From NCBI GenBank assembly GCA_018700535.1, contig JABITQ010000072.1, positions 1-54,077 of the forward strand: a stretch of 54,077 nt of DNA. The letters run 5' to 3'. Both the position numbers and the translations under genes were made by a program. The notes below the pieces were generated by a model, which made no database searches, was not told where the DNA came from, and was given only the letters and a program-made list of their open reading frames with translations. The DNA is from Candidatus Uhrbacteria bacterium. GTDB taxonomy: Bacteria; Patescibacteriota; Patescibacteriia; UBA9934; GWF2-40-263. Positions 7,181 through 31,392 of this stretch are shown piece by piece (positions within the stretch are counted from its first letter, which is position 1; each line of letters starts with the position of its first letter).

Positions 7181-8380
7181 TTACGGCTGCGGCATGTTCG
7201 TCGGAGCGTTCATGCTGTGCCAGTGGTGCCCACCGTTGGTGGTGGTCCCCACAATTGCGTAGTTGTGCTGCACGTCAGTCGACACCATCCCCCAAGGCAT
7301 GGCCAAGTCGGAGTTGCTGACAGACAAGCGCTCACTCATCGCCAATGGGCTGTTGTCGCCCGTGATATACGACACGGACGTGACGTAGTTCTCGAATGTG
7401 AGCATTCCGTAGATCGAATTGCCAGGGTCCATAGGTCCATCGTCGATGGGGCCATCGTCCATCGGTCCATCGGATCCCGGGTCAGCAGTGGGATCGGTCG
7501 GATCACTGTCACCGGCGTAGCCCATTGGATCCATCGGGTCGTCCCCGATCATGAAGATGTCCGCGACACCGATGTTCATGGGGTCGAAGAACGTGACGTA
7601 CCGATTACCACCGGACGATTCCCAACCGAACCCGATCGGCAGACCTGTCGAGACACTGAGTCTCTCAAACAGGTCGTACACCTGGAGATAGTCCGGGTCG
7701 AAACCTGCGCTGAGCAGATATGTTCCCACACGACCGTCGCCCGAGGCAATGATGCCGTCGTCGTTGTCGTGGTTCTTGCACGGGTCGTCTTCTTCTGGAT
7801 GGTTCCAGCCGTAATCGCAGAGATCACAGTCATCACCAGAGTCAGCAACGTCACCGTCACCGTCACCCCAACCCCAGTCCCAGGAGCCTCCACCCATCTC
7901 TCCGCCGGGCTCCGTACCGAAGCCACCCATCTGACCGCCGTAGATACCAGCGGTGGTGGGCAAGGGGTATGGCGTGCCATACAGCAGATTGTCCATCGTC
8001 CCGGTCGGGAGGATGATGGTCGGGGGCATGATCATGGTGGGAAGCTGGGGCCTCAGAGCGTACTGGATCAACGCCTTGTGCAGCTCAAACAGTCGTGCCA
8101 CACCCAATTTCCACTCAGACACCGCTGTTTTCCAGATGGTGCCGTTGTAGGCAGATTGGGAGATTGTGACACCCAGCTCTTTGACAGTGATTACCAAGAC
8201 ATCGAACTCAGCTTGCGCTGCGGCAGCTTGTGCAGCCGTCGTGATGACGAGTCCACCATCGGCTGTGGCATGTGCCGGCGAAGAGCCGAAGTTGGCCACA
8301 GAATGCAGCACCTTGGCTGGATTGTGGAGCGTGGCACCCAACAGAAGGGCAGAGAGTGAGATAAAGAGTTTACTTCGCAT
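7181..8380 (-). CDS. secreted, highly acidic Asp/Gly/Pro-rich protein (399 aa), function unknown
   Basis: Signal-peptide-like N-terminus (MRSKLFISLSALLLGATL). GGAG lies 9 nt upstream of the ATG, and the gene has its own terminator. The mirror + strand ORF (7148-8359) is Arg/His/Val-rich, typical of antisense frames in GC-rich DNA. Confidence 0.7.
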   Translation of the reverse strand: MRSKLFISLSALLLGATLHNPAKVLHSVANFGSSPAHATADGGLVITTAAQAAAAQAEFDVLVITVKELGVTISQSAYNGTIWKTAVSEWKLGVARLFELHKALIQYALRPQLPTMIMPPTIILPTGTMDNLLYGTPYPLPTTAGIYGGQMGGFGTEPGGEMGGGSWDWGWGDGDGDVADSGDDCDLCDYGWNHPEEDDPCKNHDNDDGIIASGDGRVGTYLLSAGFDPDYLQVYDLFERLSVSTGLPIGFGWESSGGNRYVTFFDPMNIGVADIFMIGDDPMDPMGYAGDSDPTDPTADPGSDGPMDDGPIDDGPMDPGNSIYGMLTFENYVTSVSYITGDNSPLAMSERLSVSNSDLAMPWGMVSTDVQHNYAIVGTTTNGGHHWHSMNAPTNMPQP

Positions 8381-8583
8381 TGGTCGGATCTCCGTGAGAA
8401 TATGTGTGCATCAGACCGCCTGATACACACGGTTTTGCTGAGGTTGTCCCAGCGGTAAAATCTATGAATATTTCTCATAGATTCAACCTCTAAAACAACG
8501 CAGGCGCGGACAATGTCATATAGAGCGCTTTTTGTCAATAGCCATAGGGTTAACCGATCTCCAAATAGCCTTATATTGCTGGT

Positions 8584-8630
8584 AAAAACAAGACGCCACC
8601 CGGGAGTTACCAGGTGGCGCTTTTTCGTTT
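8584..8630. terminator. bidirectional intrinsic terminator
   Basis: GACGCCACCCGGG..CCAGGTGGCGC hairpin with T-runs on both strands, just after the stop of the 8636-9064 gene. Confidence 0.7.
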
Positions 8631-8635
8631 TCGTT

Positions 8636-9064
8636 TCAGACTCGGTCTATGGAGGCAACGCCTTCGATTTGCCCGATTCGCTGAAAGAGTTCTCGGATAA
8701 GAGTTCGCTGTGTCTCTTCCGGAACATCGTCATCAAAGCTGATGGCGAGCGTTGCAGAAGGAGCGAGAATGTTCATCGACTCGATTTTGCCACAGAAGCC
8801 AGTGATATCCCTGACGAAATCTTCGTAGGAAATGTCGGCACCTTCGAGAATGTTCATCATCTCGGTCTGTTCCCAGATGCGTTCATTGAGCAATCGGTTC
8901 AGGCGTCGAATTTCAGTAGCTGGTCCACTGTACGTTTGTTCCAATGGCCGGAGCTTGAAACGACTGCCTCGCAGCAACAACTTCAGGGCTTCGAATTCTT
9001 CGATGACTGGCCTGGTGGAAAAGGTGATCTGGAGTACTAGTAGATCAAGTTTGCGGGGTGACAT
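8636..9064 (-). CDS. hypothetical protein (142 aa)
   Basis: ORF with AGGAG 5 nt upstream of the ATG at 9064. The overlapping + ORF 8513-9040 runs through the terminator hairpin and was rejected. Confidence 0.65.
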   Translation of the reverse strand: MSPRKLDLLVLQITFSTRPVIEEFEALKLLLRGSRFKLRPLEQTYSGPATEIRRLNRLLNERIWEQTEMMNILEGADISYEDFVRDITGFCGKIESMNILAPSATLAISFDDDVPEETQRTLIRELFQRIGQIEGVASIDRV

Positions 9065-9098
9065 GCATTCTCCTATGGGGGGTGTTGATTGTTTGCTC

Positions 9099-9782
9099 TT
9101 AGAGTCTTTGGTTGTCCATCTCAGAGAGGATGACCTTCAGCATTTTGGCATCTTCACTTCTGTGTCGTGAGCGCTCCATCTTGCTTTGAGCGGCTTGCAA
9201 TCCAACCCTGAGCGCAATGACAGCATCGCGATTTTTTTCCATTCTGAGCTGAGGTGTCATGTAGCGAACCCATCCTCGGACCCCTCCGCCTGCGCCGCGG
9301 ATGTGATCGAGGAGAGAGAAGAACATGAACGCACCTTCATAGACCTGGCTCGGTGCTTCACTTACCATCAGGTTCATCTGAAGGCTGGCGGATAGCGCGT
9401 GGTCCAGCGGCATCATCTCACGTTCCGGAAAGTTCCCAGAGTACTTGAAGATCGCGTTGATGACCGTTGTGCTCGGATCAAGATTGAGCATGGCTCGCCC
9501 AACTCTTGCCGTCTCGGACAAGAACCCGTTGGGAAGACCGGCCGCTTCTTCTTCGTCAGCCACCTCTCGAATGGCCTTCATACAGGCCGTGAGTTCGTCG
9601 AGATCTGTCACCCTCAGGTTGCTGAAGGTGGGCAGAGAGAGTCCTAATGTAATGAAAAGGGTTCGGACGTCTTCGTGGGTGGTAGGAAAACCTTTGTTGA
9701 AACGACGCAAGACATGCTCCGGAAAGTTGCTAGGTCGCGGGTTGCGACAGGTGTTTCTACCATCAGGCAGGGTATTTGTCAA
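9099..9782 (-). CDS. hypothetical protein (start uncertain)
   Basis: Longest frame in the region. The track start at 9782 is TTG with no SD. An in-frame TTG at 9710 is preceded by GGAG at 6 nt. No family recognised. Confidence 0.55.
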   Translation of the reverse strand: MTNTLPDGRNTCRNPRPSNFPEHVLRRFNKGFPTTHEDVRTLFITLGLSLPTFSNLRVTDLDELTACMKAIREVADEEEAAGLPNGFLSETARVGRAMLNLDPSTTVINAIFKYSGNFPEREMMPLDHALSASLQMNLMVSEAPSQVYEGAFMFFSLLDHIRGAGGGVRGWVRYMTPQLRMEKNRDAVIALRVGLQAAQSKMERSRHRSEDAKMLKVILSEMDNQRL

Positions 9783-9889
9783 TGGTTTGGGGTGCCTGTC
9801 TCCCTGGTGGAAAACTAAATATTTATCCCCAAAAACCTTGATAACTTTGCCTTTGCTGGAAGGCTTATAGCGTGTAAGCTCTGCTTACT

Positions 9890-12800
9890 ATGTCCAAGTT
9901 TGTTCACCTTCATTCCCATTCCCATTACTCGCTTCTTGAGGGGCTTCCTAAGACGAAGGAGTTTTTGAAGCACGTAAAGGATTTGGGGCAAGATACTGTT
10001 GCACTTACGGACAACGGAACGCTCTATGGTGTAATCGACTTTTACCAGAAAGCCCAGAAGGAGGGTATCAAGCTTATTATCGGTTGTGACTTTTATGTTG
10101 CACGCCATGGTCGTCTTTTAAAACGTGCACGCGTCGATAACAAGCCTCATCGGCTCGTCTGTCTTGCAGAAAACCTTGAGGGGGACATGAACCTTATCAA
10201 GCTTTCCTCCGTCGGATTTTTGGAGGGGTTTTATTACAAACCTCGTATCGACAAAGAGTTGCTGCGTGAACATACAAAAGGAATCATTGCGTTGTCAGGT
10301 GGGTACTTGGGTGAGATTGACGAGTTGATCAAATTGAAAAAGATTGATGAAGCAGAGGAGGTGATTAAGGGGTATGTCGAAATGTTTGGTGAGGGGAACT
10401 TCTTTTTGGAGTTGGTAGATCGCCCTGAGATTGCAGAGCAGGAGGCGACGAATGCGCAGCTTATCGCGCTTGGAAAAAAGTTGAACGTTCCTGTTGTTGC
10501 AACCAAGAATACATTTTATCTCAAGCCGGGCGACGTGGAGGCTTGGAAGATTTTGAATTGTATTAAGGGTGGTAGAACGCTCGAGCATTTTAATCGCATC
10601 AACCAGTTTGATTACGATGCGTCGATGGTGACAGGTGAGTACATGGAGGAGCGGTTTGCTGATGTACCAGAGGCGATTGAGAACACGCGGAAGATTGCGG
10701 ACAGATGCAATGTTGAGCTTGAGCTTGGAAAGTGGAACTTTCCAAAGTTTGAAATTCCTGAGGGGCAGACCTTTCTTAAGGAGCTAACAAAGCAGGCGTT
10801 TGCGAAGTTGGAAGAGAAGAAGGGTCGTGAGCTTACAGAGGTTGAGGCAGGTCGATTAAACTACGAGCTCGATATTATTGAGCAAAAAGGATTTTGTCCG
10901 TACTTTTTGATTGTGTCCGACTTTATTAACTGGGCGCGTGAAAAAGGGATCATGACCACGACGCGTGGATCTGCGGCTGGGTCACTCGTTGGGTATTCGA
11001 TTGGAATTTCTTCAGTTGATCCTTTGTATTACGAACTTCCGTTTGAACGTTTCTTAAACCCTGAGCGTCCATCTGCACCTGACGTTGATGCTGACTTTGC
11101 TGACAACCGTCGCGATGAGGTGCTTGATTATGTGCGCGAAAAATATGGTCACGACCAAGTGGCTCAGATCTGTACCTTTGGATCCATGCTTGCCAGAGGT
11201 TCGGTTAGAGATGTTGGTCGTGCGCTTGGGTTTGAGTACGGCATGATCGACGAGATTGCCAAGGTGATCCCGATGGGGTCGCAGGGGTTTGCGATGACGC
11301 TCGACCGCGCGCTTGAGGAGTCACCGGATTTGAAGAAAAAATACAACGTCGACGCAAACGTTCGTCGTGTTGTCGACCTTGCGCGCCAGCTAGAGGGGTG
11401 CGCACGTCACGTCTCTATTCATGCGGCTGGAACAGTTATTTCTCCAACGGCACTGACAGACTTTACGCCACTGCAAATTGATACACGTGAAGGAAAGATT
11501 ATCTCGCAGTACGAGATGAAGTCGGTTGAGTCTGCAGGACTCGTCAAGATGGACTTTCTTGGTATCCGCAACCTGTCAATTTTGGGAGACGCGGTTCATT
11601 TAGTAAAGAAAACAAAAGGGGATGTTATTGATGTTGAGGAAATCCCGACAGATGACAAAAAGACATTTGAGCTTTTGGCTGCCGGGAACACGATGGGGGT
11701 CTTTCAGCTTTCAGGTGATGGGATGACGAAGTACTTGATGGACCTGAAGCCGGTGCGTATTGAGGACATCATGGCGATGGTTGCCTTGTATCGCCCTGGG
11801 CCGATGGAGGTGATCCCGCAATTTATTGAGCGTCGATTTGATCCAAAGAAGGTTCGGTTCCTCGACCCTAGAATGAAAGAGTTTTTGCAGAAGTCTTATG
11901 GACTTTTGGTTTATCAGGATGACGTGATGCTTACCGCGATCCATATGGCGGGGTACTCGTGGCTTGAGGCGGACAAGTTGCGTAAAGCCATGGGAAAGAA
12001 AATTCCTGAGGAGATGGCGAAGCAGAAGATTAAGTTGCTCGATGGGTTTGTTGAACATGGTGTAAAAAAGTCGCTTGCGCAAAAGTTGTGGAAGCAGATT
12101 GAGCCGTTTGCGGCGTATGGGTTTAACAAAGCTCATGCGGCGAGTTATGGAATGGTTGCGTACCAGACGGCGTTCATGAAGGCGAACTATCCAGCTGAGT
12201 ACATGACCGCGCTGATGACCGCTGAGAGCGGAGACCTTGAGAAGATTGCGGAGGCTGTGTCTGAGTGTGCGCGCATGGGGATTGAAGTGCTGCCACCAGA
12301 TATTAACGAGTCGCTAAAAGACTTTACTTACCTTAACGACAACCAAATTCGTTTTGGTCTTTTGGTGATCAAAAACTTGGGAGGGGAGGTGATTGAGACG
12401 ATTATTGCTGAGCGCGAAAAGAATGGTGAATTTAAAGACCTCGGTGATTTTGCTGGACGTGTGTCGCACAGAGCGTTCAATAAGAAATCTCTTGAAGCAC
12501 TAACAAAGGTGGGTGCGCTTGAGCGTTTTGGTGAGCGTAAAAAACTGTTGACCAGCATGGATCGTGTATTGATGCACAACAAAAACATGCAGCGCGAGAA
12601 GGCGACGAATCAGCAATCTTTGTTTGCTGCCGCACCGCAAGTGATGGATCAAGACATTGCGCTTCGTGATTGCGAGCCAGCGACGACGCGTGAGCTGTTG
12701 ATGTGGGAGAAAGAGCTGTTGGGGTTGTTTGTGTCTGCTCATCCTTATGATGAAGTTGTTGAGAAACTAGGGAAGCATCTAACGGATTGCGCTGATGTGC

Positions 12801-23806: not shown

Positions 23807-24646
23807 ATGACACCATTTGACGTTCAATATAAAGAAGCGATTCGTTTGATTATGGAAGAAGGGATTGATGTCCCAAACCCATGGTCAGGTCGTGTGACCC
23901 GTATGGTTCCTGGTGTAACCTTGCGTGTAGATGTTGCGGAGTGTTTTCCGTTGTTAACACTTCGGAAAATTCCATTACGTCTTTTTATTGCTGAGCAGGT
24001 TTGGTACTTGATGGGCGAGAAGAACGCCACCTGGTTGCAGCAGTACACAAAAATTTGGGATGCATTTTTGGAAGAAGACGGTACGGTGCAGGCGGCTTAT
24101 GGTCATCGGTGGCGTCATCATTTTGGGCGCGATCAAATTGATTTGCTCGTGACACACCTCAAAGAGAATCCTGCATCTCGACATGCAGTTGTGATTACTT
24201 GGGATCCTGCAGATGATGGTTTTGGTCTCGACAAAAAGTTGAATGTCCCATGTCCGTATACATTTACTGTTAACATTGCTGGAGGAAAACTTCATCTCCA
24301 CAACATCATTCGCAGCAACGACATGATGCTTGGGTGTCCGCACGATGCCGCAGGTTTTGCACTATTACAGTGTTTCTTGGCTGAAAAGCTAGGTGTCGAG
24401 CCAGGGATCTACACACATTCAATTTCAAACGCACATATCTACGACAATCACTTTGATGCCGCAAACGAGCTCATGAGTCGCAGTCACGATCACGGAACGG
24501 TAAAAGTAACGATTCCAGAAAATGGTTATGATCGCGCGGTAAAGGGAGATACCGAGCTTGTGAGTGAATTGTTTAAGCAAGTAAAAAGTCAGTACAATCC
24601 CCTTGAATCAATTAAAGGAATGAAGATTACCGTTAACGTTTACTAA
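23807..24646 (+). CDS. thymidylate synthase (ThyA) family enzyme with atypical Asp at the Asn177-equivalent position
   Basis: It aligns by eye along the whole length of E. coli ThyA: CFPLLTLRK, IWDAF, AYGHRWR, ASRHAVVITWD, catalytic NVPCPY, IRSNDMMLGCPHDAAGFALL, SNAHIYDNH, and C-terminal GMKITVNVY. Confidence 0.85.
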   Translation: MTPFDVQYKEAIRLIMEEGIDVPNPWSGRVTRMVPGVTLRVDVAECFPLLTLRKIPLRLFIAEQVWYLMGEKNATWLQQYTKIWDAFLEEDGTVQAAYGHRWRHHFGRDQIDLLVTHLKENPASRHAVVITWDPADDGFGLDKKLNVPCPYTFTVNIAGGKLHLHNIIRSNDMMLGCPHDAAGFALLQCFLAEKLGVEPGIYTHSISNAHIYDNHFDAANELMSRSHDHGTVKVTIPENGYDRAVKGDTELVSELFKQVKSQYNPLESIKGMKITVNVY

Positions 24647-24648
24647 AC

Positions 24649-25170
24649 ATGAAAGTATTACTTATCGCCGCAATTACTGCGGATGGAAAAATTGCTGAGA
24701 CAACTGATCAAAGATCACTTGATTGGACGAGCAAAGAGGACTTGAAGTTTTTTATTGAGAAAACAAAAGAGGCCGGTGTTGTGATCATGGGTAGGAAGAC
24801 TTATGAGACGTTTGGTAAGCCTTTGAAAGGACGCAGGTTGATTGTGATGTCATCAAAAGGAGATGATGGACTTATGGATAAAGTGGATGAGCTTGAAGCT
24901 GGAGTTGTCGAATATTCTCGACTAGACATTAAGCAGATGATCAGCAAGCTTGAAGCGCAAGGGTATGATCAAGTCGTTGTTGCCGGAGGTGCATCTGTTT
25001 ACGGTCAGTTTTTGGAGCAAGAGCTTGTGACAGATGTTTATCTTAATGTTCATTCGATTTTGTTTGGTGCAGGCGTACCACTTGCAACAGGGTTCGAACG
25101 TGTGCAGATGAAGCTTGAAGATGTCAGTCGTTTAGGAGAGCAGGAGGTTCTACTCCATTACACTGTTTAA
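24649..25170 (+). CDS. dihydrofolate reductase family protein (RibD C-terminal domain type)
   Basis: 173 aa with LIAAITADGKIA, GVVIMGRKTYE and VVVAGGASVY motifs. Lies 2 nt downstream of the ThyA-family gene. Confidence 0.7.
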   Translation: MKVLLIAAITADGKIAETTDQRSLDWTSKEDLKFFIEKTKEAGVVIMGRKTYETFGKPLKGRRLIVMSSKGDDGLMDKVDELEAGVVEYSRLDIKQMISKLEAQGYDQVVVAGGASVYGQFLEQELVTDVYLNVHSILFGAGVPLATGFERVQMKLEDVSRLGEQEVLLHYTV

Positions 25171-25171
25171 T

Positions 25172-25212
25172 AAAAAAACTGGCGTCGGGATAATCCCTGC
25201 GCCAGTTTTTTT
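25172..25212. terminator. bidirectional intrinsic terminator
   Basis: AAAAAAACTGGCG..CGCCAGTTTTTTTG between convergent genes. Confidence 0.75.
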
Positions 25213-25217
25213 GTTTG

Positions 25218-28200
25218 CTAAGCCTCTCTTTGCAGGTTGATATCTGCTAACTCTTTCTCGATAAATAATTCATTTGATTCGATCTTTCTAAGAATCTGAC
25301 CATACTCTGGAGTATGTCTTAGTTCTTCGTTTTGCATATCGACAAGCATGGTTCTAAACGCTTCTGTTTCTCCAAGTGTGTTGACCAAATCTTTGCGCAT
25401 GTCGTTTGCTGTGTGTTGCGCGTTGTATCCATCGCTATCAAAGACCACTTGGGTGACAGTGTTTGTTGTGTCCGGGTAACCACCCACCATTTTGTACCCA
25501 CGATAGATTTCGTTTGAGGTGATTCCGCGTGCGCTAAGGGCTTGCTCTTCGTATTGCCAATGGTCAAAGCGAGCCATGTTTACATTTGTAACCTCACCTT
25601 TGAGGTTGTAGTGAAATCTTACTCTTCCGTGCCTGTTTGCAAACCGTCCTAATTTTTCACCGTCTTGATATCGGGTTTTTCCTGCATCGGAGTCGCTGGT
25701 CTGTTCTGTCGGTTCGCCGTTATTTACTGCTACAACACCCCCGCCACCAGTATCTACTGGAGCCTCTGGTGCAGCGGTGTTAACGAGAATAATACCAGAT
25801 GTTTCTGCGGCGTGCTTGATAACATTATGGGCTCTGTCTAAGTATTCTGCGTTACCACTGCGAAGTTCTGCTGCCAATAACCTTCGCAACAATACAGCCT
25901 CACCAGATGTGGGGTTCTCAATAATTTGAGCTGAGCGGAGAGCTTTCTCGTAAATAAAGATACGCATTGCTGTTTCTTTGATCGAATCTTTTCGGTCATC
26001 AATGCCGTTAAAGGAATCTTCCTCCCAATTGTCATCGAGCAGCTCTTGCGATGCGGTGGCGAATGACGGTGGGGCCTTGGCGATCTCGTCGTCTAGGTTG
26101 ATGCTTGGGGTGTGTGAACCATCGTAATCAAATTTGATACGACCAAGTCCTTTTACTTTAATTTTTACATCAGACTCACTTGCTTCAACATCGGCTTTGA
26201 TATCCGCGAGAGTTTCTGTTGATAGTGAGGCAAGTTCTTCGTTTCCTTGTTCGCCAATGCGAGCGATTTCATCGAGCATCTCGCGACGAACTAGATGTGC
26301 TTCTGCGCTATCGCCTAAGTCGTTGTCTTCAAGTGCGTGCAGGGTTCGCTCATAAGCTTCGATGCGTAGAACAGCTTGCTTAACCACCTCGATGTCGTGA
26401 GCGATCTCTGCTTTAAGATCTGAGTCGAGAGATGAGCTTGCCATCATTGCGTCGACTTGCTTCAGCTCTGCGGCATTCAGATCCATTCCAGTGATCTCTG
26501 CTCCCGTAACTGTGCTGTCTGGTCCGTGTTCAAAATCAACCTCAACACCCTTACCAAGCATAAGCTTGTCGATACCTGCTGAATGAGGTGTTGGATCAGA
26601 TGCAATTGATCGTTCGGTAATCGACCCAATGCGTGATCCGCTTTCGTAGGTGAGTCCTTGTTCTTCAGCCTCAGCAAACGTCATTGCTTCACCTGTAGCA
26701 GTGTCAACGAGTTGGATACCACCATCTTTTGTGGCATGCACAGCAATCTTTCCAATAGCGTCAGTATCAAGTCGCGTGTCTCCATCTTCGCGGATCGCTC
26801 CAGCGTCACGTGCGGTTTGAACGGCTTTGTCGAGCGCCCAATCTTTTACTCCGGTATCGTCGCCTGTATATCCAAACGATTTAGGATCTTCCATGTACTG
26901 GTTGCGAAGAAGTGCTGTGATGCTGTTGTGATCTCTGTCTGCGCTAACAGTAATTTCTTGAGAGACTTCAATGATCGGAGTTTCAACTGGCGCTGAAGAC
27001 TCTGCTGACGCCGCAGCTCCGGTTTCTGCTCCAGGCTCTGTGGTTGCAGCTACCGCCCCACCATCGACACTTGCAACTGGTGCCGGAGTGCTTGTTTCGG
27101 CAGTAGAAGGTGTTGGTGTGGTTGTTGATGTGGGTGTAGGTTTCGGTGGTGGAGTGACGGTTGCTGGAGTTGTCGTCGTAGATGAGTCTGGTGTCGCAAC
27201 AGCTTCTTCCTTACTGTTAAACAGGTCTGTAAAAAAGCGTACGACTGGATTTGAAGGATAACGATCGTCTGCTGCTTCTAGCGCCTCAGTTAAGCTCTTT
27301 TTAAGACCTTCTACATGTTTACCAGGGGCGATATCGCCAACATCATCACCGAATGCAAAAGTGGCAAGACCACCAAAGGTAGCGAGAGTTCCAAGGGCTT
27401 TTATTCGGCTAATGTTTCGTCCCCAAATGGTTTTTGCTCCTCCTCCCTCAAATTCATTTATTTTTTCATGGATTCCACTCACAATCATTTCGTTCCAGTA
27501 TGCATCTGGACGTTCACCCTCCTCAATTTCCTTACTGACTTTTCTATGACGTTCAAATAGTGAAACAGCAGAGAATGAGGCAAGACGATAAACTTCAAGC
27601 CCCGTTACTTTGAACAGTGTGTTAATTCCTTGTTTGAGCACCTCCGTCTCCTTGATGCGTGTCTCAATAGACTTTTTGAGAACCTCAATAATTTCCTTGT
27701 TCCGTTTTTCTTCAAGATCTTCAAGATCTTGCTCGTACTTATTGATGATGCCTTCGATCTTTCCAATCAGCTTCGCTTTCTTTGTTTCAGTGAGGAATTC
27801 AGATTGTTGAATTCGTTCTGCAATTACACGTTGTTTTTCGATGAGTAGCTCGTGTCCAGAAAGCTTGGGTTCTTTTTCTGCTGCTTTGAGCGCATCGAGA
27901 ATACTTGCTCTTTCTTTGTTTGTGTAGCGTCTCTGGAATCCGTATTGAATTGCATCAGGGATTATTTTTACACCAAAAATACTCATGGCAGCACCAAGCC
28001 CAGCACCAGCTAATGCTTTGGCTGTATCAACTCCTGTTGCTTCGTAGTCCTCTTTTTCTTCCGTGCGGAGCTCACCAGTAAACCGACGTTTGAATTGTTC
28101 TGCATGTCGACCGAGACTTTCTTTAAATCCTGATTGTTCGACAGGTTCTGAATCTGACTGCTCTTCATCGTTTTCAACCTGTACTGATTCTGTGCTAACA

Positions 28201-29798
28201 GCAGGATTGATTTCATTCGACTTGTCGTCGTCGACTTGCTCGTTTTTTAGAATCGCATCTATTCTTGCGGAGGCTTCTGTTTGAAAACTCACTCTCATGC
28301 TTTCTGTGCGAAGACTCTTCTCAACTTGAAGCCATTCATCAATGAGTTTTTCTGTTTCTGCTTCAATGGCTACCACACGTTCAGGGGAGAGGCTTAACAT
28401 CTCGTCCTTTTGGACGATCGAAAAATCGTCCATACCGAGCATTTGCTCTAATTGATGAACATCATCTTGGATCTTGTCATCGACGGCTGTGATTGATTCA
28501 GTGACAGTGTCTGGGGTTTGTGCTTTTACACCATCGAGCATTTCATTGATCTCTGCCAAGATATCATTGAGATAAAGTCGATTTATTATTTTTTCGCTTA
28601 ACAAAATTGGATCCTTAGGAGGATTTTCCGGATAAGTTTCTGTAAGGGTTCTAATTAGTCTGGAAAGCTTAATGTCAGCATCTTTCAGTTGTTGTACAGA
28701 TAGTTTTTCAAATTCACTTGTATTTTTTATTGCATGCAAAGGCCATTCAGTTTCAAGGGTTTTCAAAAGCCTCTGCACTCTTTCTAGCTCCAGCTTGTGT
28801 TCTGCTGGATTTTCATTTTCCAGCTGTTTTTCTTGGGTTTGCTCGGGTGAGAATCTTTGTCTGTCACCAGAGTTCACAACGGCATTGTGGATGTGCATTG
28901 GGAAAAAGTTTTCAAGAAGCTTTTCTTTTTCTTTCGGTGTTGATTCAATCTCTTCTGAAATTAATACAAGAAGTTTTTTGAGATCAACAAGATCTTCCAG
29001 CGACCAGCTATCAAGTTTTTGCAATTCCTCCAAGGTGCGGGAAATTAATGAAACTTTTACATCTAGGGAGGATCCTAGTTTTTCTAGATCCTCCAGCACC
29101 TCACGTTTTTGCTCTTGCAGCTCGACGTTAGAAGGATTTCCTTCTGGCACTCGTACAGCAAGAGGCTCCGCGGCTCCAAACACAGAAACAGCTTTATTGA
29201 TTCGAGTCTTGATTGTGTTGGCAAAGGCCGCTCGATCTGATACTGGCACCTGTTCAAAGTCGTACTTTATTTGATTCAGTATATTAACAAGGTCTTGTAG
29301 TTGGTCTGCAGACATGTGTCCAAGTCCATCTAGCTTCTTTTCAGTTGTGCCAAAAAGAACCCCTGCATCTTTTAGAGCAGATTGAAGATCTTGTAATTTT
29401 CCCCATGCTTCTGTTTGCTTCTTACGCTCACTTTCTGCATTCGCTGGAGATGTGGATTCTGGGGTAGTGGCTTGTGGGGGGAATGAGTTATCGGCCACTG
29501 TTGTGTCGATGATTTTTCTAGCGCTATTTACAAACGCACCTTTAGCTGCTTCCTTGTCTGCTTCAGGGATTGAATCAAATTCTACCAGTATTTTACCAAG
29601 TTCATGATGAAATGCGTCTAGCTCTTTTGCGGCCAGATCATCAAGAATGTCAATTTTGGTGTCGGCTGATATGGAAATAATACCTCTTTGAATCAAGGCT
29701 GCCCGAAGAGTCTTGACGTTCTCCCAAGCTTCATCTTGTATTCTGAGCCTTTCTTCCCTGGAAATTTTCCCCTCATGGCCTGGTGCATCTAAGTTCAT
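25218..29798 (-). CDS. giant acidic repeat protein (1526 aa) with two TM-like segments and a Thr/Pro-rich linker
   Basis: Uninterrupted 4.6-kb ORF. It has four N-terminal ~100-aa helical repeats, hydrophobic segments ALAGAGLGAAMSIFGVKII and ALGTLATFGGLATFAFG, a TTTTPATVTPPPKPTPTSTTTPTPS linker, and three C-terminal modules. Confidence 0.8.
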   Translation of the reverse strand: MNLDAPGHEGKISREERLRIQDEAWENVKTLRAALIQRGIISISADTKIDILDDLAAKELDAFHHELGKILVEFDSIPEADKEAAKGAFVNSARKIIDTTVADNSFPPQATTPESTSPANAESERKKQTEAWGKLQDLQSALKDAGVLFGTTEKKLDGLGHMSADQLQDLVNILNQIKYDFEQVPVSDRAAFANTIKTRINKAVSVFGAAEPLAVRVPEGNPSNVELQEQKREVLEDLEKLGSSLDVKVSLISRTLEELQKLDSWSLEDLVDLKKLLVLISEEIESTPKEKEKLLENFFPMHIHNAVVNSGDRQRFSPEQTQEKQLENENPAEHKLELERVQRLLKTLETEWPLHAIKNTSEFEKLSVQQLKDADIKLSRLIRTLTETYPENPPKDPILLSEKIINRLYLNDILAEINEMLDGVKAQTPDTVTESITAVDDKIQDDVHQLEQMLGMDDFSIVQKDEMLSLSPERVVAIEAETEKLIDEWLQVEKSLRTESMRVSFQTEASARIDAILKNEQVDDDKSNEINPAVSTESVQVENDEEQSDSEPVEQSGFKESLGRHAEQFKRRFTGELRTEEKEDYEATGVDTAKALAGAGLGAAMSIFGVKIIPDAIQYGFQRRYTNKERASILDALKAAEKEPKLSGHELLIEKQRVIAERIQQSEFLTETKKAKLIGKIEGIINKYEQDLEDLEEKRNKEIIEVLKKSIETRIKETEVLKQGINTLFKVTGLEVYRLASFSAVSLFERHRKVSKEIEEGERPDAYWNEMIVSGIHEKINEFEGGGAKTIWGRNISRIKALGTLATFGGLATFAFGDDVGDIAPGKHVEGLKKSLTEALEAADDRYPSNPVVRFFTDLFNSKEEAVATPDSSTTTTPATVTPPPKPTPTSTTTPTPSTAETSTPAPVASVDGGAVAATTEPGAETGAAASAESSAPVETPIIEVSQEITVSADRDHNSITALLRNQYMEDPKSFGYTGDDTGVKDWALDKAVQTARDAGAIREDGDTRLDTDAIGKIAVHATKDGGIQLVDTATGEAMTFAEAEEQGLTYESGSRIGSITERSIASDPTPHSAGIDKLMLGKGVEVDFEHGPDSTVTGAEITGMDLNAAELKQVDAMMASSSLDSDLKAEIAHDIEVVKQAVLRIEAYERTLHALEDNDLGDSAEAHLVRREMLDEIARIGEQGNEELASLSTETLADIKADVEASESDVKIKVKGLGRIKFDYDGSHTPSINLDDEIAKAPPSFATASQELLDDNWEEDSFNGIDDRKDSIKETAMRIFIYEKALRSAQIIENPTSGEAVLLRRLLAAELRSGNAEYLDRAHNVIKHAAETSGIILVNTAAPEAPVDTGGGGVVAVNNGEPTEQTSDSDAGKTRYQDGEKLGRFANRHGRVRFHYNLKGEVTNVNMARFDHWQYEEQALSARGITSNEIYRGYKMVGGYPDTTNTVTQVVFDSDGYNAQHTANDMRKDLVNTLGETEAFRTMLVDMQNEELRHTPEYGQILRKIESNELFIEKELADINLQREA

Positions 29799-30115
29799 AG
29801 AGTTTCAATATGATCGCGAATTTGATCGATTTTTTGTTCGCGCATGACTTCGTCTGTGGCTTTTGTGATCTCGGTCATCTCTTTGTTGTTTAGAGATTCC
29901 TTCTTTGCGTTGAAGTCTTCTGTGATGTCGTTGAGGGTGTTAAGGAGTTTGTCTACGAGCTCGATGTCTTTGTCCTCCCAATCCAAAAGAAGTTTCTCTA
30001 TCTCAGCTTGTTGCTCGGGGCTTGGGGAGAGTGCAAGCATGTCGATTACCATCAGCTTTGTTTCGCGATCAAGTGATCCATTTTTGAGAATGTCTGTAAT
30101 GCGAACCCAATCCAT
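29795..30115 (-). CDS. small helical protein (106 aa), paralog of the upstream gene
   Basis: 4-nt overlap with the giant gene. Carries the SPSPEQQAEIEKLLLDW module followed by a coiled-coil tail. Confidence 0.65.
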   Translation of the reverse strand: MDWVRITDILKNGSLDRETKLMVIDMLALSPSPEQQAEIEKLLLDWEDKDIELVDKLLNTLNDITEDFNAKKESLNNKEMTEITKATDEVMREQKIDQIRDHIETL

Positions 30116-30116
30116 A

Positions 30117-30440
30117 CTATTGCTCTAGCTGATTAAGAATGTCTTCTACTTCATCAAGCTCTGCCATTGTTTGAGCCTCAAGATCTTTTCGCTCTTTTGT
30201 GTAGGCATCATTTGCAAGCTCAATACTTTTTACAAACTCTCGCGCTTCAATCTCAGGGGCACCTGCGACATTTTTTTCTAAAATTGCGATGAGCATGTCT
30301 ATCTGCTCTGGTGTCATGTCGGGGATAAGCGAAACAAAAGCTTGCTTAACGTCATCAGGTAATGATGCAGTATGCAAAAGAAGGCCAATACGATTTCCAA
30401 TCACTTTGGCTTGCTCTTCAGGTGTTGGTTGGTCAGTCAT
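30117..30440 (-). CDS. small helical protein (107 aa), first gene of the giant-protein operon
   Basis: Carries the LIPDMTPEQIDMLIAILEK module plus a coiled-coil tail. A TATACT -10-like element lies upstream. Confidence 0.65.
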   Translation of the reverse strand: MTDQPTPEEQAKVIGNRIGLLLHTASLPDDVKQAFVSLIPDMTPEQIDMLIAILEKNVAGAPEIEAREFVKSIELANDAYTKERKDLEAQTMAELDEVEDILNQLEQ

Positions 30441-30480
30441 AGTATGTATGGTATTTTCCTTTAGTATAACACTTTCTTTT

Positions 30481-31392
30481 ATGACAAATGTGGATTACCC
30501 GTACATGCCAGAAGGACGAGAGTTAAAGTTTGTTTCGGTGGAGGATTCTTTTATGCAAGAGGCTGCAAAAGCTCGTGGTGAGCGCGCTGGAGATCCGCTT
30601 TGGCCCATTGGTGCCGTCTTGGTAAAGGATGGGGAAGTTGTTGCTACAGCAGGGAACGGCTTTGATAAAGGGGCCGGCCGGGTGCATGTGTGTCCGCGGA
30701 TTGTGGAGGAGTGCGCGAGTGGTGTTGGATACGAGTTGTGCGACTTACACAATGCAGCAGGGCACGCCGAGCCAATGGTGATTAAGGTTGCGCGTGACGC
30801 CGGTGTAGAGACGGAGGGCGCAGACTTTTATATGTACGGTCATTGGTGGTGCTGCGAGCCTTGCTGGAATGTGTTGATCGATGCGGGGGTGCGAGATGTA
30901 TATGTGGTCGACGATGCGCATGAGCGTTTTAGTCGAGATAGGGTATATGCAGAAACGTTGAAATCGACGGTGAAGAGCGCGTACATTGCAGGGCCGATTA
31001 CAAACGTTGTCGACTTTGAATCTCAGAAGAAATTTTACGAAGCGATTGGGGAGGTGTGTGAATCAATGGGGTGCAAAGCAAGGATCCCGCATCGCGACAA
31101 TGTTGTGAATGAAATCTTTGATGGTGGTAATTGTGAGCAGGTGTATGAGTGGGCGACTAATGAGGCACATGTAAACGATGTTGTGGTGGCAGAGGTGAGT
31201 GATCCATCACTTGGAACGGGTGGGGAACTGGTCGAGGCTGTGTATGCAAAAAGGCCTATTGTGCTGCTTTCAAAAGTTGGGTCTAAGGTTTCTCGGTTTG
31301 TTCTTGGGAATCCAGCGGTGGTGTATCACATCGAGTACGAGAATCAGGAGGATGTTTGTCGAAAATTGAAGAATGTTTTGAAGCAGTTGTAA
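30481..31392 (+). CDS. dCMP/cytidine deaminase domain fused to a nucleoside 2-deoxyribosyltransferase-like domain
   Basis: N-terminal zinc motifs GHAE and CEPC. The C-terminal Rossmann-like half has YIAGPI and GTGGELVEAVYAKRPIVLL. The ATG at 30481 is preferred; the track start at 30289 overlaps the divergent gene. Confidence 0.75.
   Translation: MTNVDYPYMPEGRELKFVSVEDSFMQEAAKARGERAGDPLWPIGAVLVKDGEVVATAGNGFDKGAGRVHVCPRIVEECASGVGYELCDLHNAAGHAEPMVIKVARDAGVETEGADFYMYGHWWCCEPCWNVLIDAGVRDVYVVDDAHERFSRDRVYAETLKSTVKSAYIAGPITNVVDFESQKKFYEAIGEVCESMGCKARIPHRDNVVNEIFDGGNCEQVYEWATNEAHVNDVVVAEVSDPSLGTGGELVEAVYAKRPIVLLSKVGSKVSRFVLGNPAVVYHIEYENQEDVCRKLKNVLKQL

Follow-up and report, generated by a model that had tools for sequence, protein, structure and literature searches.

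The locus and its genes

The window analysed here is the whole 54,077-nucleotide stretch of DNA from a Candidatus Uhrbacteria bacterium. On its minus strand lie three co-oriented genes, named here A (30117-30440), B (29795-30115) and Big (25218-29798), all recovered by an ORF check. A previous reading made from the sequence only had described them as tightly packed with a 4-nt overlap into the largest gene, and its coordinates proved exact: A and B are separated by 1 nt, while B and Big share an ATGA. Directly 3' of the Big stop codon, an intrinsic terminator-like hairpin can be read on the minus strand (25175-25207), formed by CTGGCG...CGCCAG and followed by TTTTTTT. This hairpin was missing from the list of a consensus scan because its loop is longer than the limit of the scan. 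Since a run of A is found on its opposite side, the terminator could act for both convergent genes. The 1-nt gap and the ATGA overlap mark A, B and Big as translationally coupled, and the 3' hairpin closes the unit. The triad is present as a single copy in the source genome, that of a tiny groundwater bacterium, and its neighbours are housekeeping genes.

The small proteins A and B

A (107 aa) and B (106 aa) are both acidic, helical and devoid of cysteine. A is the best-conserved protein of the triad and was gathered from 42 non-redundant loci. Its family motif reads G-x-R-L-x-L-L-L...L-P-x-D-V-K...L-I-P-E-M-T-x-E-Q-I-D-x-L...L-E, and that of the B family is L-D-R-E-T-K-L-x-x-I-D-L. The proposal that A and B are paralogs built on a common module was borne out by hhalign, which aligned 84 collinear columns (E 1e-4) with the very register first put forward, and the HMMs of the two families match each other with E down to 1e-10. 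In addition, a natural A-B fusion exists in a relative (G014), in which the A HMM covers residues 7-82 (E 2e-22) and the B HMM residues 80-177 (E 4e-15). No frameshift relation was found between the two genes.

Architecture of Big

Big is a protein of 1526 aa, mostly alpha-helical and lacking a signal peptide. It is strongly acidic, as had been noticed from the sequence, with a pI of 4.7 and a net charge of about -105. It contains no cysteine where about 14 would be expected, and 65% of the Big family is likewise without cysteine. Many of its homologs have N-termini rich in Pro, Glu and Ala.

The N-terminus of Big was originally described as four tandem repeats of about 100 aa. Three of them hold, R1 (residues 11-105), R2 (119-212) and R3 (219-310), which are about 95 aa each and are encoded together at 28869-29768 on the minus strand; Smith-Waterman alignment against shuffled sequences gave z=13.7 for R1-R2 and z=8.0 for R2-R3. 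The fourth does not (z about 2 or less, hhalign probability <1%). The region that follows (residues 327-540, 28179-28820, minus strand) consists of acidic helical segments comprising R4 and R5, the latter (429-525) absent from the original list and weakly B-like (z=3.4); neither is significantly similar to R1-R3 (z<=2.7; hhalign probability <1%). No repeats in Big were detected by Tandem Repeats Finder or by self-BLAST. The repeats R1-R3 are lineage-specific and remain unaligned in most homologs, whose alignment to Big starts only at about residue 540. The further idea that the A/B module recurs in these repeats is weak: the named module is indeed where the top local alignment lands, but the hhalign probability is only 5-15% and the A and B HMMs have no match at E<=1 in the N-terminus of Big. 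In many family members the B HMM also gave weak recurrent matches within the core, some 100 residues from its start (best E 2.6e-5), which were not accepted as homology because coiled-coil composition could give them.

The family-defining part of Big is a core domain of about 250 aa and about 10 helices (residues 564-816, 27351-28109, minus strand). An iterated HMM matched it in 30 of the 31 large proteins tested (28 of 29 when non-redundant, the exception being that of locus L055), and the core family comprises at least 403 cluster representatives, with clusters at 50% identity. In it, the residues G609, S666, L669, K722, E/Q723, R738, E749, R750 and G775 are invariant or nearly so. With a pI of 6.7, it is near-neutral as opposed to the very acidic remainder of the protein. 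Two semi-hydrophobic segments, 595-613 and 799-817, belong to it as well, and so does another at 723-750. The AF2 model of the core is all-helical, and as its confidence is moderate (pLDDT 67, pTM 0.37), the topology of the bundle is only a prediction.

The core is followed by a linker rich in Thr, Pro, Ser and Ala (residues about 862-939, 26982-27215, minus strand). Such a Thr/Pro-rich linker had been pointed out previously; it is present at about residues 866-905, and AF2 predicts disorder throughout 862-939 (pLDDT <50). It is particular to Big and its close relatives, the fraction of Pro, Thr and Ser after the core not being enriched family-wide. Next comes a small alpha/beta domain (residues about 940-1050, 26649-26981, minus strand), modelled with a pLDDT of about 90 and found in 80 of 177 family members. 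The modules M1 and M2 (residues about 1070-1335, 25794-26591, minus strand) are each predicted by AF2 as a small beta-sheet and then a long helical hairpin. The protein ends with a beta-plus-helical domain (residues 1366-1526, 25221-25703, minus strand; pLDDT 72-94) that displays an invariant F..Y and a T-P-E motif and is shared by 38 of 177 members. Three C-terminal modules, each beginning with a G.G...F.Y/H motif, had been suggested. AF2 does place each of the motifs in a small predicted beta-sheet followed by helices; sequence similarity is supported between M1 and M2 (z=4.35) but does not extend to M3.

Conservation and distribution

Word-indexed searches returned a single relative for Big and a single one for A, and the remaining homologs came from genome and related-locus searches; a metagenome scan was seeded with the A alignment. 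Of the non-redundant A loci, 29 have 2.5 kb or more of downstream sequence, and in every one of them A is followed by a Big-type large protein: 24 have A, B and Big, five have A and Big, and none is without Big. Synteny of the triad in relatives, which had been proposed as a check, is therefore the rule. The intergenic gaps of these loci are mostly -4 to +12 nt. Co-oriented and nearly always abutting or overlapping, the three genes are probably made together. The flanks vary by lineage and include thyA/DHFR with a deaminase, recR with rplU, rplI, or a YdjM-like gene. That the order of A, B and Big is kept while the flanks change indicates that the genes travel as a module.

Gene order is conserved within the Uhrbacteria family, and the regions around the conserved core are highly variable in length and sequence among homologs. 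The triad is limited to a few Patescibacteria lineages, namely Uhr-, Kerfeld-, Komeili- and Falkowbacteria, and 10 of 401 genomes of the phylum proved to contain the core.

Searches for known relatives

A, B, Big and their domains have no detectable known relative by sequence or predicted fold. Searches of Pfam, NCBIfam, PHROGs and PADLOC with the three proteins gave a best E>=0.003, far under the curated cut-offs; among these, the match of PADLOC PbeD to B (E=0.003, 15 bits) was judged to be noise. Eighteen core sequences compared with Pfam gave nothing above cut-offs (best E about 1e-3, to DUF1542), and 37 diverse full-length family members matched no Pfam family at E<=0.001 and no catalytic family. 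PDB profile searches with alignments of A, B, the core, the 940-1050 domain and the C-terminus returned designed or coiled-coil noise only. For the 940-1050 domain, the best hit was a designed helical repeat protein (E 0.001), and for the 1366-1526 domain a designed protein (E 0.006), nothing being biologically meaningful in either case. In the same way, Foldseek searches of the PDB with a 987-aa model and with a core-only model found nothing at E<=0.001. A search of the literature retrieved no paper on the A/B/Big operon.

A candidate helical scaffold and its alternatives

The explanation that we favour, although tentatively, is that an A-B heterodimer binds and assembles Big, a soluble, acidic, Cys-free helical scaffold protein. 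In this view, A and B would each have an N-terminal helix-turn-helix-turn-helix module, which is conserved, followed by a C-terminal helix of amphipathic character, and would pair with each other. The heterodimer might then dock on Big as an assembly factor, an adaptor or a stabiliser. Big itself would be a soluble, very acidic, Cys-free and mostly helical modular protein. The conserved bundle of about 250 aa would form its centre, flanked by small alpha/beta domains and by arms, disordered or made of repeats, that evolve fast. The complex would most likely be cytoplasmic, possibly membrane-peripheral, and would act as a structural scaffold, being neither an enzyme nor an integral membrane protein. 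The part of this proposal that makes the small paralogs partners or chaperones of Big had already been advanced, and it is well supported indirectly by the gene order retained in 29 of 29 loci despite changing flanks, by translational coupling and by the A-B fusion.

Scaffold is what long helical proteins are called by default, and the term rests here mostly on negative evidence. Some observations run counter to it. The invariant polar residues of the core R750, E749, K722 and S666 might just as well point to an active or ligand site, strongly variable arms are also typical of surface or host-facing proteins, and segment 1 of Big, with a Kyte-Doolittle (KD) value of 1.72, is borderline TM.

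A doubtful but still credible alternative is that Big is exported or displayed at the surface by a non-classical route. By analogy with the Lap partners of LXG toxins (type VII), with PE/PPE pairs and with type III translocator chaperones, the A-B heterodimer would be a dedicated secretion chaperone or targeting factor, and the part turned towards the host would be the variable C-terminal modules. A pair of helical paralogs of about 105 aa directly upstream of a large protein without signal peptide is in line with such a system, as are a conserved core with highly variable flanks, the stalk-like Thr/Pro-rich linker and the semi-hydrophobic helical hairpins of the core. The lack of cysteine in A, B, Big and most of the family would also fit; nevertheless, the putative signal-peptide proteins of the genome contain 1.48% Cys versus 1.03%, and as exported proteins are not Cys-depleted here, Cys-freeness does not discriminate and was dropped as an export marker. 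Moreover, the genome, which is 98.6% complete, has no WXG100 match and one FtsK protein of 857 aa with a single domain, which argues that it has no type VII system. In none of the loci is a secretion ATPase or an immunity-like gene linked to the triad, and no similarity of sequence or fold to any secretion substrate or chaperone was seen.

It is improbable that the core represents a helical enzyme, or a domain for ligand binding, that has escaped recognition, with a site made of the invariant Glu-Arg, Lys-Glu and Ser and with A and B as regulators. Such a site would account for the invariance or near-invariance of G609, S666, K722, R738, E749 and R750, and for a core that is near-neutral within a very acidic protein. 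However, there is no family or fold match, the His, Asp or Cys that are typical of metal or nucleophile sites are not conserved, and charged residues that are conserved in a helical bundle often serve as structural salt bridges.

The sequence-only reading had seen in Big a membrane-spanning scaffold or surface apparatus with two TM-like segments about 200 aa apart. In such a protein, two TM helices would separate cytoplasmic repeats binding A and B from an external C-terminus. The two segments do exist, at 595-613 and 799-817. The former reaches a KD of 1.72 in Big and is rich in small-xxx-small (glycine-zipper-like) spacing, and the Thr/Pro linker comes after the second, all of which would suit a membrane protein. 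Nevertheless, over 176 members of the family they fall short of TM grade, an outcome that the sequence-only reading had itself listed as grounds for rejecting its proposal. The medians of the KD 19-mers are 1.18 and 1.10, a value of 1.6 is reached by just 12% of the members for segment 1 and 3% for segment 3, and the closest homolog of Big (P0004) attains only 1.14. On the Eisenberg scale (<H>21), the median of the 176 members is 0.51 and 1% reach 0.68, compared with 0.46-0.50 for soluble proteins of the window and 0.92-0.96 for polytopic membrane proteins used as controls, so that the scores of the segments resemble those of helices buried inside soluble proteins. They contain, in addition, conserved Lys, Arg and Asp. 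Within the N-terminal 45 residues, a KD of 1.6 is found in only 1% of the 176 members and Big has 0.66, which argues against a Sec/Tat signal or anchor; these signal-peptide and TM calls are hydropathy heuristics (Kyte-Doolittle, Eisenberg). Export of the 590-aa N-terminus or of the 700-aa C-terminus would require a topology without a supporting signal. By family hydropathy, Big looks soluble rather than membrane-spanning, an integral membrane scaffold is highly improbable, and as a practical correction, annotating Big as a membrane protein should be avoided.

Finally, a domesticated phage tail module (two tail-assembly chaperones and a tape-measure protein) or a MukF-MukE-MukB-like condensin is suggested by the small-small-giant gene order of both systems and by the tape-measure proteins that head the BFVD Foldseek matches, but this reading is effectively refuted: those matches amount to generic long-helix similarity (TM-scores <=0.1, rmsd 27-61 A, E>=0.008), no PHROG match is significant (best E 0.035), phage genes lie beside none of the loci, A and B have no frameshift link, a Walker A motif (P-loop, G-x4-G-K-[ST]) was not seen on reading Big, and the Pfam and NCBIfam searches gave no SMC_N, AAA-type or other ATPase domain.

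Significance

None of the proteins of this operon resembles anything characterised, despite their conservation as a unit in related lineages. CPR/Patescibacteria genomes are small, and the 5.2-kb operon stays intact while its neighbours change; it is thus unlikely to be dispensable. The analysis defines three new families, namely the A/B pair, the helical core and the two small alpha/beta domains, and it proposes a concrete candidate complex of A-B with Big. If the idea of a scaffold or host-contact device is true, it bears on how ultra-small, probably episymbiotic cells organise or attach; if not, the triad still offers structural genomics a well-defined target. A broader view, which is rather unlikely, is that the triad would be an unrecognised cell-biological machine of ABY1-type CPR bacteria, either a cytoskeletal or attachment scaffold or a chaperone-dependent export substrate that is independent of a signal peptide and serves episymbiotic host contact. 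A/B, the core and the alpha/beta domains would then be founding families without relatives outside these lineages.

Comparison with known systems

Phage tape-measure proteins and their chaperones gpG/gpGT share with the triad the small-small-giant order and a long helical giant with semi-hydrophobic Gly-rich segments. Unlike them, the triad is chromosomal and single-copy, with other phage genes absent and no programmed frameshift between A and B. MukF-MukE-MukB/MksFEB are alike in order, with two small proteins and then a largely helical protein of about 1500 aa, whereas no ATPase heads, kleisin or winged-helix domains were detected in the triad.

The LXG toxins with Lap1/Lap2 (type VIIb, Firmicutes), PE/PPE and EsxA/EsxB also combine two helical tandem proteins of about 100 aa with a large downstream protein that has no signal and a variable C-terminus, and in the triad, too, the small proteins would pair. 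However, sequence or fold similarity is lacking, and the genome has neither WXG100 nor a multi-domain FtsK/EssC ATPase. Moreover, no immunity gene lies downstream in the triad, and the conserved part of Big is central rather than N-terminal.

The scaffolds of the HMW1/HMW2/P65 type from the Mycoplasma attachment organelle show no detected homology to the triad, and an EAGR-box-like element was not noticed. The likeness would be compositional only: like Big, these proteins are large, very acidic, helical or coiled-coil and Cys-poor, and their acidic Pro-rich low-complexity regions resemble the Pro-, Glu- and Ala-rich N-termini of many Big homologs. They are cytoplasmic cytoskeletal scaffolds in a genome-reduced, host-attached bacterium.

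Organization and distribution of the triad

Genes A, B and Big are consecutive on the minus strand of the window and encode proteins of 107 aa (30117-30440), 106 aa (29795-30115) and 1526 aa (25218-29798), the three ORFs of the sequence-only reading being matched exactly on re-examination. The stop codon of A lies 1 nt from the ATG of B, and an ATGA is shared by B and Big. Directly 3' of the Big stop codon lies a GC hairpin and its T-run, on which a DHFR-like gene converges from the opposite side. A divergent dCMP-deaminase-like gene (plus strand, ATG at about 30481) is only 40 bp from the start of A (30441-30480), and therefore both promoters must overlap neighbouring coding sequences or one another. 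A TTGTCA...TATACT pair with an unusually short spacer was also observed upstream of A. The triad is single-copy in its host genome, G000 (about 1.03 Mb, 98.6% complete).

Two scans seeded with the A-motif pattern yielded 53 loci, or 42 once redundancy was removed. Synteny, a survey suggested by the sequence-only reading, was counted in those 29 loci where 2.5 kb or more of sequence follows A: the order A-B-Big was found in 24/29, the other 5, of Falkow- and Komeilibacteria type, carry A-Big without B, and Big is missing in none. Spacings between the genes are usually 1-12 nt, or a 4-nt overlap. Most members of the Uhrbacteria family have thyA/DHFR and a deaminase beside the triad, others have recR/rplU or rplI, and Kerfeldbacteria have a YdjM-like gene. 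Since these flanks vary by lineage, linkage is a property of the three genes themselves, which are shown to form a coupled, conserved module.

In the Uhrbacteria family (loci L002, L004 and L029), thyA with the DHFR-like gene (window 23807-25170) and a dCMP-deaminase fusion gene (30481-31392) bracket the triad, which there looks like an insertion into a nucleotide-metabolism cluster. Big homologs are present in 13/40 close relatives. Even sampling recovered B from 8/301 class genomes and the core domain of Big from 10/401 phylum genomes, nearly all of them in a few families of a single class. Several third-party MAG records (CAY*/CAZ*; loci L039-L042, L046, L050, L052 and L055) bearing the title 'uncultured Gammaproteobacteria bacterium' also carry this Patescibacteria-specific triad; their organism names are apparently mislabelled, as contigs have the same size (31494, 43941) as in the Patescibacteria (CPR) relatives G015 and G024.

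A and B as paralogs, and the repeats of Big

A and B each belong to a conserved family. Aligned profile to profile, the two are collinear across 84 columns (E 1e-4, probability 58%), with A 'LIPDM-TPEQIDMLIAILEK' set against B 'LALSPSPEQQAEIEKLLLD', the register proposed from sequence. When a larger set was used, E fell to 1e-10 for A-HMM matches to B proteins and to 1e-6 for B-HMM matches to A proteins. Judged by these profiles, A and B are shown to be paralogs. In genome G014, a single 180-aa protein is matched by the A HMM on residues 7-82 (E 2e-22) and by the B HMM on 80-177 (E 4e-15); such a natural fusion is classical indirect evidence for interaction, and A and B probably pair.

The N-terminus of Big had been described as four tandem repeats, of which three were recovered (11-105, 119-212 and 219-310; z=13.7 for the first pair and 8.0 for the second, Smith-Waterman against shuffles). 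Neither the claimed fourth repeat (R4) nor a fifth segment (R5) showed significant similarity to them (z<=2.7; hhalign probability <1%). The repeats are invisible to BLAST self-comparison and Tandem Repeats Finder. The case for their proposed identity with the A/B module is weak: hhalign probability is 5-15%, even though the named module is where the best local alignment falls, and the A and B HMMs have no match to the Big N-terminus. We infer that h..hS/TPEQh..L...L describes, for the most part, a generic helix N-cap with an amphipathic helix after it. Among the three C-terminal modules claimed, M1 is related to M2 (z=4.35), whereas M3 showed no significant similarity. All three G.G...F.Y/H motifs coincide with a small beta-sheet in the AF2 model.

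The conserved core of Big

Homologs of Big can be aligned only from about residue 540 onward. An iterated HMM delimited Big 564-816, about 250 aa, as the core, which was found in 30/31 large proteins tested (28/29 non-redundant) and, by exhaustive profile search, in 403 cluster representatives, 136 of them at E<=1e-30. Its position varies between residues 2 and 1142 in proteins of 215-1887 aa. A second domain (Big about 940-1050) is present in 80/177 members and a C-terminal domain (Big 1366-1526) in 38/177. The exception among the large proteins is the divergent locus L055. There, A precedes a 73-aa ORF (7323-7544) and a 1043-aa helical protein (7551-10682) unrecognised by the core HMM, which might represent a large subunit that was duplicated or has diverged; a core-containing protein of >1082 aa, with a partial match (HMM positions 79-250), comes only afterwards.

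For the core alone (32 sequences), AF2 gave about ten helices (pLDDT 67, pTM 0.37), and the core is shown to be a helical, soluble-looking domain. The model of Big 540-1526 (19 sequences) has a mean pLDDT of 58.7, with confident parts at 940-1050 (about 90) and 1379-1520 (72-94). The Thr/Pro linker noted in Big is real and AF2-disordered; it is absent as a family feature. Dozens of members showed weak, positionally consistent matches between the B-family HMM (its C-terminal half) and the core's long helical hairpin (Big about 665-725), about 100 residues past the core start and at best with E 2.6e-5; these could reflect remote B/core homology or common coiled-coil composition.

Possible roles of the triad

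Our tentative reading, a plausible one, is that A and B would form a heterodimer binding Big, in a complex that may act as a soluble, perhaps membrane-peripheral, structural scaffold.

It is conceivable, though rather unlikely, that Big is non-classically exported and host-facing, with A-B as its chaperone. Type IV pilus ATPases are encoded in G000, no WXG100 protein was found there, and its FtsK is only the ordinary one; a hydrophobic N-terminus occurs in only 1% of 176 family members. Big is very acidic (pI 4.7) and contains 0 Cys in 1526 residues against about 14 expected; A and B also lack Cys, as does 65% of the family. The putative exported proteins of G000 are not Cys-depleted, so Cys absence gives no hint of location. 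The Cys content of this class is raised by giant ORFs exceptionally rich in Cys: one of 3002 aa with 128 (C33:1-9008, minus), 1116 with 62 (C87:36817-40167, plus), 867 with 47 (C30:12212-14815, plus) and 762 with 40 (C96:8808-11096, minus). Several other very large ORFs of G000 (826-2644 aa) are Cys-free and without A, B or core domains (plus strand, C50:9882-17816, C43:3206-6040, C82:105-2651 and C50:18434-20914; minus strand, C17:703-3540 and C62:13906-16614).

That the core is an unrecognised enzyme or ligand-binding domain appears improbable. A, B and Big have no meaningful match in Pfam, NCBIfam, PHROGs, PADLOC or PDB sequences, 37 diverse family members contain no Pfam domain, profile searches of PDB with five alignments gave nothing meaningful, and Foldseek at E<=0.001 returned nothing against PDB (both AF2 models) or BFVD.

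The two-TM membrane scaffold of the sequence-only reading is quite improbable. Kyte-Doolittle hydropathy reaches 1.72 (595-613) and 1.26 (799-817) in Big itself, but family medians for these segments are 1.18 and 1.10 (176 members), with 1.6 reached by 12% and 3%, respectively. Under the Eisenberg criterion (21 residues) the family has a median of 0.51, with 0.68 reached by 1%, values indistinguishable from soluble ORFs of the window (0.46-0.50) and far below its polytopic membrane ORFs (0.92-0.96). The segments are Gly/Ala/Ser-rich with conserved Lys, Asp and Arg. From this composition and hydropathy, they are concluded to be buried helices of a bundle rather than TM helices, the outcome that the sequence-only reading itself had named as refuting a membrane-spanning protein. 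Finally, that the triad is a leftover phage tape-measure or condensin-like module is very improbable. The tape-measure proteins that top the BFVD results (TM<=0.1) share only generic long-helix similarity.

The three proteins and their domains have no detectable relatives beyond a small number of Patescibacteria lineages, and a literature search found no paper on them. Orphan proteins of this kind are common in CPR genomes; the triad represents uncharacterised territory rather than a variant of a known system.
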